DNA from: Escherichia coli
GTDB lineage: Bacteria > Pseudomonadota > Gammaproteobacteria > Enterobacterales > Enterobacteriaceae
Length of the DNA: 64,000 nt
Direction: 5' to 3' (one strand)
Assembly: GCF_030013205.1 (NCBI RefSeq)
Contig: NZ_CP122648.1
Part shown: in pieces, positions 19,576 to 20,272 of the stretch
How the letters are laid out: every line of letters starts with the position of its first letter
Position numbering within the stretch: the stretch's first letter is position 1
Program-made: the position numbers and the translations under genes
Notes under the pieces: model-generated
Databases searched by the model: none
What the model saw: only the letters and a program-made list of their open reading frames with translations
What the model was told of the DNA's origin: nothing

Positions 19576-19874
19576 TTTGTTCTCCTTAATTATGTAAGGA
19601 GAATTTGATCATGTATAAGCAATAAAAAACAGCTTTAGATAATGAGGAATATCTCAATTTTTAAACATAAAATGTGAATTATTTAGTACAAAAAAGCAGC
19701 GTTACGTAATCTTTCCCTGACTAATATATAGTTAAATGCAATCAACTTATTATTCATCGATGCATTTTATAGAATCATCAATGGCTATAATAGTACTATT
19801 AACTCTCAATTTTATATTTTTATCATCACTACAAATATTAACTGAATTTATATCAATGATTTTTATCTTTTATT

Positions 19875-20272
19875 TTATTTTATTTTATTTGCAGTTTCAA
19901 TGCAATCAGCGGCAAGTTGGTGTGAATTTAGATTTTTCAGATATGGTCTTATGATCTTTCCCTTACTTAATAAATAGCATGTATAGGATTCGTAAAGTCC
20001 AGCATCTATTTTGTACCTCATTATATTAGATAAGGATGTGAGAAATTCCTTGTTATCATTCGCAGTCATATATGCCAGTCCGAGTTCAGCCTCTGCGGCC
20101 TTACAGGAAAAATAGCTAAGTGAACACGCTTTTCGTCCCTCTTTAGTACTGGCTGATATTAGTGCCCATAATATTGCTTTGTCTGCCAAATCTAACTCTC
20201 TCTGAAATTGTCTTGCAGTAAATGCACTCGCAGAAATAGAGAAAAAAATACAATTGTTAATAACTTTGCCAT
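19875..20272 (-). pseudogene. orphan Rhs-associated immunity-like gene with N-terminal signal peptide, frameshifted in an A7/T7 run
   Basis: ATG at 20272 encodes MAKLLTIVFF; the frame shifts in the homopolymer at 20242..20248 and continues as the 104-aa ORF ending at 19875. Confidence 0.55.

Follow-up and report, generated by a model that had tools for sequence, protein, structure and literature searches.

The stretch of DNA analyzed here (hereinafter the window) comprises 64,000 nucleotides of an Escherichia coli contig (NCBI RefSeq NZ_CP122648.1). Using the PGAP annotation of a 100% identical locus from the swine strain K_EC180 (NZ_CP062203) together with our own scans, we mapped, in this porcine-type E. 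coli, a minus-strand Rhs locus of the rhsB side that comes after rbbA and yhhJ (Table 1). Its genes occur in the order Rhs, IS1, yibG-like, orphan C-terminal toxin, Imm57 and ISAs1, the last of these being labeled 'ISAs1 family transposase, incomplete' by PGAP and bounding the Rhs locus on the yhhJ side; in two related loci (L107 and L108) the ISAs1 transposase is full length. This is the layout of an Rhs orphan toxin-immunity module, wherein a core-end fragment, a toxin and an immunity gene lie downstream of the main rhs gene; the Rhs core-end motif (YDDESGLYYN...DPLG) is located in the 20644-20862 fragment. The IS1 copy has an 8-bp target duplication (CTATAACA) and has split the main Rhs gene in the part that encodes its C-terminal toxin; the Rhs ORF now ends in GDAANLLI-stop within the IS1 inverted repeat. 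Leftover coding sequence of the main-Rhs C-terminal toxin is found at about 21375-21478, just upstream of the yibG-like Sel1 gene, whose product is presumably the immunity partner of that toxin.

Table 1. Features of the yhhJ-side Rhs locus; positions are those of the window.
Feature	Position	Strand	Remarks
rbbA	15127-17862		
yhhJ	17778-18986		
ISAs1 (H-repeat, yhhI-like) transposase fragment, truncated	19141-19575	-	Pfam DDE_Tnp_1_assoc, E = 1.5e-34
Imm57-family orphan immunity pseudogene	19750-20272	-	PGAP 'frameshifted; internal stop'; Pfam PF15596
Out-of-frame C-terminal remnant	19750-19860	-	IIDINSVNICSDDKNIKLRVNSTIIAIDDSIKCIDE-stop; holds cysteines C147 and C170 and helix 150-165
Pentanucleotide microsatellite	19868-19890	-	(AAATA)4 on the coding strand, (TATTT)4 on the plus strand; TRF
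104-aa ORF of the sequence-only reading	19875-20189	-	TTG start; complete Pfam Imm57 domain; ends ETANKIK-stop
Premature TAA	19875-19877	-	inside the repeat; alleles with n>=3 read AAT AAA ATA AAA TAA in the gene frame
Homopolymer in signal-peptide codons	20242-20248	-	A7 on the plus strand, T7 on the coding strand; T8 (A8) in relatives
Degraded orphan Rhs C-terminal toxin module	20278-20862	-	Rhs core end and Tlde1/YkuD-like L,D-peptidase domain
yibG-like Sel1 protein	20896-21363		intact
IS1	21479-22246		complete, 768 bp
Frameshifted Rhs core gene	from 22220 onward		continues past this point

An earlier reading of this DNA, made from the letters alone (the sequence-only reading), had drawn attention to a short tandem repeat beside a 104-aa orphan ORF that it took to be immunity-like. 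The latter assignment is borne out by profile searches, in which the ORF matched the Pfam Imm57 model along its entire length (profile positions 1-100 of 100; E = 6e-46) with a score of 155.1 bits against a cutoff of 25 (range for the pseudogene 151-155 bits). The full extent of the gene runs from an ATG at 20270-20272 to a native stop at 19750-19752 and is homologous to the yibV region of E. coli K-12; its 173-aa reconstruction has the same length as the intact E. coli proteins of clusters P0001-P0006, to which it is 86-88% identical. At about 175-185 aa, full-length members of the family exceed the 100 positions of the Pfam model. No NCBIfam model matched either the reconstructed Imm57 protein or the toxin remnant. 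The window does not encode an intact Imm57 protein, for which a length of about 173-185 aa, a signal peptide and six conserved cysteines would be expected, because a T7 homopolymer detaches the ATG and the signal peptide, and a premature TAA removes C147, C170 and helix 150-165.

The pairing of Tox-LD-peptidase domains with Imm57 was predicted by Zhang et al., 2012 (PMC3482391) and is also cited in a preprint on the Tlde1 (DUF2778) effector superfamily (bioRxiv 10.1101/2020.02.18.954545); in the literature that we found, Imm57 is mentioned only for this pairing. The window Imm57 gene likewise lies directly downstream of an L,D-peptidase-domain polymorphic toxin, with the toxin stop (20278-20280) 5 nt before the Imm57 ATG on the coding strand. 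Three-frame translation of the toxin region yielded an Rhs core end followed by a Tlde1/YkuD-like domain with stops and frameshifts and weak matches to the Pfam Tlde1_dom and YkuD models; aligned with the Rhs gene of strain PE164, which is intact, the remnant shows indels of +1, -9 and -1. In PE164 (L106; NZ_CP114128, 6555-10733), an intact 1,392-aa Rhs core protein bears the Tlde1-like C-terminal domain (Tlde1_dom 32.4 bits versus a gathering score of 30.1), and its Imm57 gene, 5 nt after the Rhs gene, has T7 as its only lesion; hence, a live toxin stands there beside a formally frameshifted immunity gene. The window locus thus resembles the Rhs Tox-LD-peptidase/Imm57 modules in its Rhs core end, L,D-peptidase-like C-terminal domain and directly downstream Imm57 gene. 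It differs from PE164, where the domain forms the end of a full Rhs protein, in that both the toxin and Imm57 are degraded; the pairing itself is a predicted one. The toxin partner in the window is, by its stops and indels, a pseudogene, which would leave the Imm57 gene with no working partner. Decay extends across the module: the Imm57 gene carries the T7 frameshift, the toxin survives as a remnant and the main Rhs gene is interrupted by IS1.

Positions 19871-19890 of the window read TATTTTATTTTATTTTATTT, an exact (TATTT)4 on the plus strand. The four perfect tandem pentamers in AT-rich accessory DNA that the sequence-only reading described are therefore as claimed: the program TRF reported period 5, 4.6 copies including a partial unit and 100% matches (19868-19890), and the GC content is 0.27 at 19500-19999 versus 0.52-0.59 in the flanking rbbA and yhhJ. 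No other perfect repeat with at least four copies and a period of 4-6 occurs in the 64 kb, and the exact 20-mer occurs once in the window, with 0 occurrences expected from 100 dinucleotide shuffles of it. As A+T makes up 73% of the region and its codons are rich in those for lysine and asparagine, one might read the array as chance low-complexity sequence that arose in AT-rich DNA with no history of slippage. However, none of 20,000 blocks simulated from a composition-matched, first-order Markov model of the local AT-rich block (19576-21400; 66% A+T) reached a period-5 array of 20 nt (simulated maximum 19 versus 23 observed), and the natural alleles described below differ by exact 5-nt units. 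These results refute an origin by chance, to which we accord practically no probability. With perfect head-to-tail copies of a short unit above chance expectation, (AAATA)n is a microsatellite by all the tests that we applied. A hydrophobic 72-aa ORF on the plus strand that runs across the repeat (19736-19954; it contains IFIFYFILFYLQF and IFIFYFILFYL) was set aside as most likely an antisense artefact of AT-rich coding DNA. Our search of the literature on Imm57 and yibV retrieved no description of the repeat.

At the repeat, the coding strand of the window reads GCA AAT AAA ATA AAA TAA, versus AAT AAA ATA AAA GAT AAG... at the same spot in the intact alleles. The latter, which encode 173 aa in E. 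coli, have (AAATA)2, read ...ETVNKIKDKNKKIIDI... across this part and continue in their C-terminal part as ...ADCIETVNKIKDKNKKIIDI, D or N, SVNIC...SIKCIDE. In the window, the native C-terminal codons (IIDINSV...KCIDE-stop) persist out of frame. The sequence-only reading had the repeat spanning the stop codon of the orphan ORF: the TAA does lie in the repeat, but it is a premature stop and a product of repeat expansion, not the native stop of the gene. A direct comparison is offered by strain PS10-3, which has an intact 173-aa Imm57 protein (WP_248748146.1) at the same rbbA-yhhJ-ISAs1-Imm57 position. Unlike the window gene, the PS10-3 copy has T8, (AAATA)2 and an in-frame linker, and hence retains its signal peptide as well as the complete C-terminal tail. 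Its linker reads (AAATA)2 followed by AAAGATAAGAATAAAAAAATC, whereas that of the window reads (AAATA)4 followed by AAAGATAAAAATC; the window linker therefore has two extra units (+10) and has lost 8 nt (AAGAATAA). That the window allele arose from (AAATA)2 by these two changes (+10, -8) is the most parsimonious reading of the comparison; no intermediate between the two alleles was found.

Sequence searches with the 173-aa query against 1.84 billion representative proteins recovered 172 relatives, of which those at 25-40% identity are 175-185 aa long and align to query residues about 5-170. An alignment of 50 sequences shows no variation at C99, C124 and C147 and at least 90% conservation at C50, C57 and C170; these six cysteines probably form three disulfides in the periplasm. 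An AlphaFold2 model from the same alignment is all-helical (mean pLDDT 93.5, pTM 0.84) and places the residues encoded by the repeat where helix 117-134 ends (VNKIKDKN in the intact alleles), with residues 130-170, including a loop and the helix 150-165 that come after the premature stop, at a pLDDT of 94-98. A Foldseek search of the PDB with this model returned nothing at an E-value of 0.001 or better, i.e., no solved structure like this fold. The lost tail would be part of the family fold, since it is conserved at 25-40% identity (C147, C170) and is confidently folded in the model. The premature stop deprives the product of the conserved C-terminal 40 residues, among them two conserved cysteines, and of the last helix of the model.

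A second lesion of the window gene lies in its signal-peptide codons. With T7, as in the window, the ATG frame ends after 26 codons; with T8, the ATG and a signal-peptide-like N-terminus (MAKLLTIVFFFSISASAFTA) are joined to the Imm57 domain. Judged by match length and identity, 8 of the 18 genomes with a window-type allele have T7 (broken) and 10 have T8 (in frame); in L099 and L104 the extra base was located directly. The agreement among members of clonal sets speaks for real differences and against sequencing errors. It is the length of the T7/T8 tract, and not that of the pentamer, that decides whether a secreted protein can be made. The truncated 132-aa form with T8 is predicted to keep the signal peptide and the whole Pfam Imm57 domain and so could retain some function. 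The common rhsA-linked copy of the gene has T7 in 72 of the 76 metagenome contigs with a complete 5′ end (loci L003-L098), and in 51 of those 72 a frame of 169 codons is otherwise open as far as the native stop; PGAP names the T7-type proteins (P0008, 788 members) from MNNCIFF..., that is, from an ATT codon, a non-canonical start. As most E. coli copies have T7 yet are otherwise open over 169 codons, the term 'pseudogene' may be too strong for the family as a whole.

We surveyed copy number across strains in metagenome contigs and complete genomes. A gapped-pattern scan of the former gave 96 E. coli-type loci dominated by (AAATA)2, in which the in-frame 31-nt allele was seen 57 times, plus variants; a K-12-type A8 frameshift was present in 18, and (AAATA)1 in 6, the latter in a TGT-type background of which an n=2 form also exists. 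The window allele was found in none of these 96 contigs. The Imm57 gene is carried by 3,675-3,690 of 5,426 complete E. coli genomes; in an evenly spread sample of 60 of the genomes, the in-frame length made up about 72% and the +1 length about 24%. The window-type allele occurs in 18 of the 3,690 Imm57-carrying complete genomes, all porcine, of the ETEC or O139:H1 edema-disease type and with the gene at the yhhJ-side locus: 15 have n=4 and three have n=5 (EC556, EC571 and EC581, all from Japan). By locus, n=5 is seen in L099, which is of the window type, n=3 in L101 (strain 105) and the contig L111, both of K-12-type background, and n=2 in K-12 and L108. The repeat number is thus not invariant among related strains, so that the refuting condition named by the sequence-only reading does not hold: it is 4 or 5 at the same locus and 1, 2 or 3 in other alleles. 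Moreover, otherwise identical alleles differ by whole units (4 versus 5 in the window type, 2 versus 3 in the K-12 type and 2 versus 1 in the TGT type), as is characteristic of a microsatellite with identical flanks. For instance, over 609 nt the window and L099 differ only in n=4 versus n=5 and in the T7/T8 homopolymer, and the differences among all 18 genomes over this length comprise the copy number and both homopolymers, plus one SNP common to two genomes. Further 5-nt slips are seen in the same 30 nt: GATAA is duplicated in L102, and AAAGA is missing from L109 (P0030 cluster). The adjacent A-run varies between A6 and A10 if the A of the ATC codon that follows is included. Taken from these alleles, the 30-nt linker stretch appears to be a slippage hotspot. 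Nevertheless, the repeat state is uniform within clonal sets: EC556, EC571 and EC581 all have n=5, and the pairs ETEC6333/6334, ETEC4070/4071 and ETEC4067/4069 are each concordant.

These allele counts also bear on a reading in which selection favored the stop because the shorter secreted Imm57 protein, 132 aa long in the T8 relatives, confers better or broader immunity, so that the repeat would mark a new, functional C-terminus. Such truncated forms do retain the entire Pfam Imm57 model, and in 10 relatives also the signal peptide, and similar VNKIK-stop ends arose independently in K-12-type alleles (P0028 cluster, 134 members; L101 and L111). Nonetheless, the tail that they dispense with is the conserved and confidently folded one described above, and alleles with n>=3 are rare: besides the 18 of window type, a query with the n=3 K-12-type allele matched at most 8 genomes at >=99% identity, of which only one was seen at full coverage, among about 3,690. 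Given that the window gene is, in addition, frameshifted, we consider adaptive truncation very unlikely.

To establish the coding effect of unit number, we rebuilt the window ORF in silico with 0-8 units. With n=0 the frame reads through to the native stop, with n=1 it ends in ANKR-stop and with n=2 in ANKIKDKNH-stop, while every construct with n>=3 has the same ANKIK-stop end. Natural alleles with n=4/T8 (L104) and n=5/T8 (L099) accordingly encode an identical 132-aa protein. Only contraction to two or fewer units changes the protein; the proposal of the sequence-only reading that a change in repeat number would alter the C-terminus and the stop position holds for such contractions but fails for all alleles with three or more units. 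A repeat is phase-variable if a one-unit change toggles frame or expression; here, four versus five copies switch nothing, since the product is unchanged for n>=3.

Contingency loci of host-adapted bacteria include the CTCTT pentanucleotides of the Neisseria opa genes and the tetranucleotides of the Haemophilus lic genes. The window shares with these a short tandem repeat in a coding region, a unit that is not a multiple of 3 and slippage; it differs from them in having 4-5 units, an in-frame stop inside the repeat that makes changes at n>=3 silent, stability within clones and a gene that is otherwise defective. We weighed the possibility that the locus is nonetheless a contingency (phase-variation) locus, in which the repeat, alone or with the T7/T8 tract and the A-run, reversibly switches the immunity protein or its C-terminus. 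The unit length of 5, the polymorphism of the copy number and of both homopolymers among near-identical strains, and the several independent alleles of the same 30-nt stretch would all suit such a device. Set against them are the constancy of the product at n>=3, the death of the partner toxin and the fixation of states within clonal sets of genomes, which suggests a slow, inherited change; in addition, the balance of simple-sequence-repeat to SNP change seems to be what neutral indel rates would give, and in known contingency loci four to five units are short for high-rate switching. On this evidence we deem phase variation very unlikely. The same low probability attaches to its most elaborate form, in which T7/T8, (AAATA)n and A6-A10 together reversibly toggle a periplasmic immunity protein or trim its C-terminus, with n>=4 also creating a promoter; if true, E. 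coli would here offer one of few examples in which immunity between bacteria is under contingency control by repeats.

The closest relative of the window gene is the yibV/yibW/yibS remnant at the rhsA locus of K-12, in which yibV (b4615, 'PF15596 family protein YibV') lies with the yibS and yibW pseudogenes and belongs to the same family, with about 96% DNA identity to the window gene. Both have the same T7 frameshift in the signal-peptide codons and the same micro-region, and both are truncated in the same linker, but in yibV this comes about through an A8 run that gives the ending KDKNKKNH-stop. Furthermore, yibV has (AAATA)2 and adjoins yibH at rhsA, whereas the window gene has (AAATA)4 and the 8-nt deletion and adjoins yhhJ/ISAs1 on the rhsB side. 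Within the literature that we found, yibV figures only in gene lists, a promoter-island table and an RNAP-SELEX table. The AT-rich K-12 stretch that begins at the 3′ end of yibV, reaches yibU and holds the (AAATA)2 is listed as an H-NS-bound 'promoter island' (PMC3661553) and as a constitutive RpoD-holoenzyme SELEX site (PMC3946193). In MG1655 (L112) it lies at about 3,769,569-3,769,987 of NC_000913.3, the offset from the older coordinates of these papers being estimated.

This K-12 stretch, being homologous and downstream of yibV, is one of the observations that would fit a promoter created by the repeat. On the minus strand, from 19900 to 19872, the window has a promoter-like site TTGAAA-17-TAAAAT with its -10 hexamer inside the repeat, such that n>=4 sets TAAAAT 17 nt downstream of TTGAAA as a near-consensus sigma-70 promoter directed toward the ISAs1 fragment. 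It is the best-scoring site in 19400-20500 (10/12 matches, 17-nt spacer), and by inspection alleles with n=2 or n=3 offer only 7- or 12-nt spacings. Yet the region holds no more such sites than shuffled sequence would (6 found, 6.0 expected), promoter islands are described as largely unproductive (PMC3661553) and the only sequences downstream are the out-of-frame gene remnant and the truncated transposase fragment. Scans for accompanying elements were likewise negative: no terminator was found in 19400-20500, and an Rfam scan of 18900-21500 with E-values up to 1 gave nothing at the repeat and two eukaryotic chance matches only. A functional promoter is therefore highly improbable.

The reading that we favor, with a probability of roughly 85%, is that the repeat is a replication-slippage microsatellite that grew from a proto-microsatellite in an Imm57 gene under relaxed selection, i.e., a scar and not a switch. 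The ancestral linker, (AAATA)2 AAAGA TAAGA ATAAA AAA, encoding ...VNKIKDKNKK..., would already have had a cryptic 5-nt periodicity; we infer that in the lineage of the window slippage then added two AAATA units and that the 8 nt were lost, and that the gene lost its function. Once three or more units were present, a TAA would have come into frame, so that the protein would end in ANKIK. The Imm57 protein probably had as its partner a Tlde1-like L,D-peptidase toxin that is delivered by Rhs and acts in the periplasm. With the toxin partner dead and the signal peptide frameshifted, the repeat would be free to drift between 4 and 5 units with no effect on a product.

Biologically, the feature adds one more case to a familiar kind of event and is of little importance in itself. 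For annotation, it means that the 'orphan immunity ORF' of 104 aa represents only part of a 173-aa Imm57 gene and that its stop would be a product of slippage. Among the 5,426 complete E. coli genomes, the (AAATA)4/5 allele of the yhhJ-side Rhs locus is confined to 18 porcine ones of the ETEC or edema-disease type and might be used as a minor marker of this lineage. More generally, the locus would provide a natural example of how an orphan Rhs immunity gene decays through short repeats and homopolymers after the loss of its toxin.
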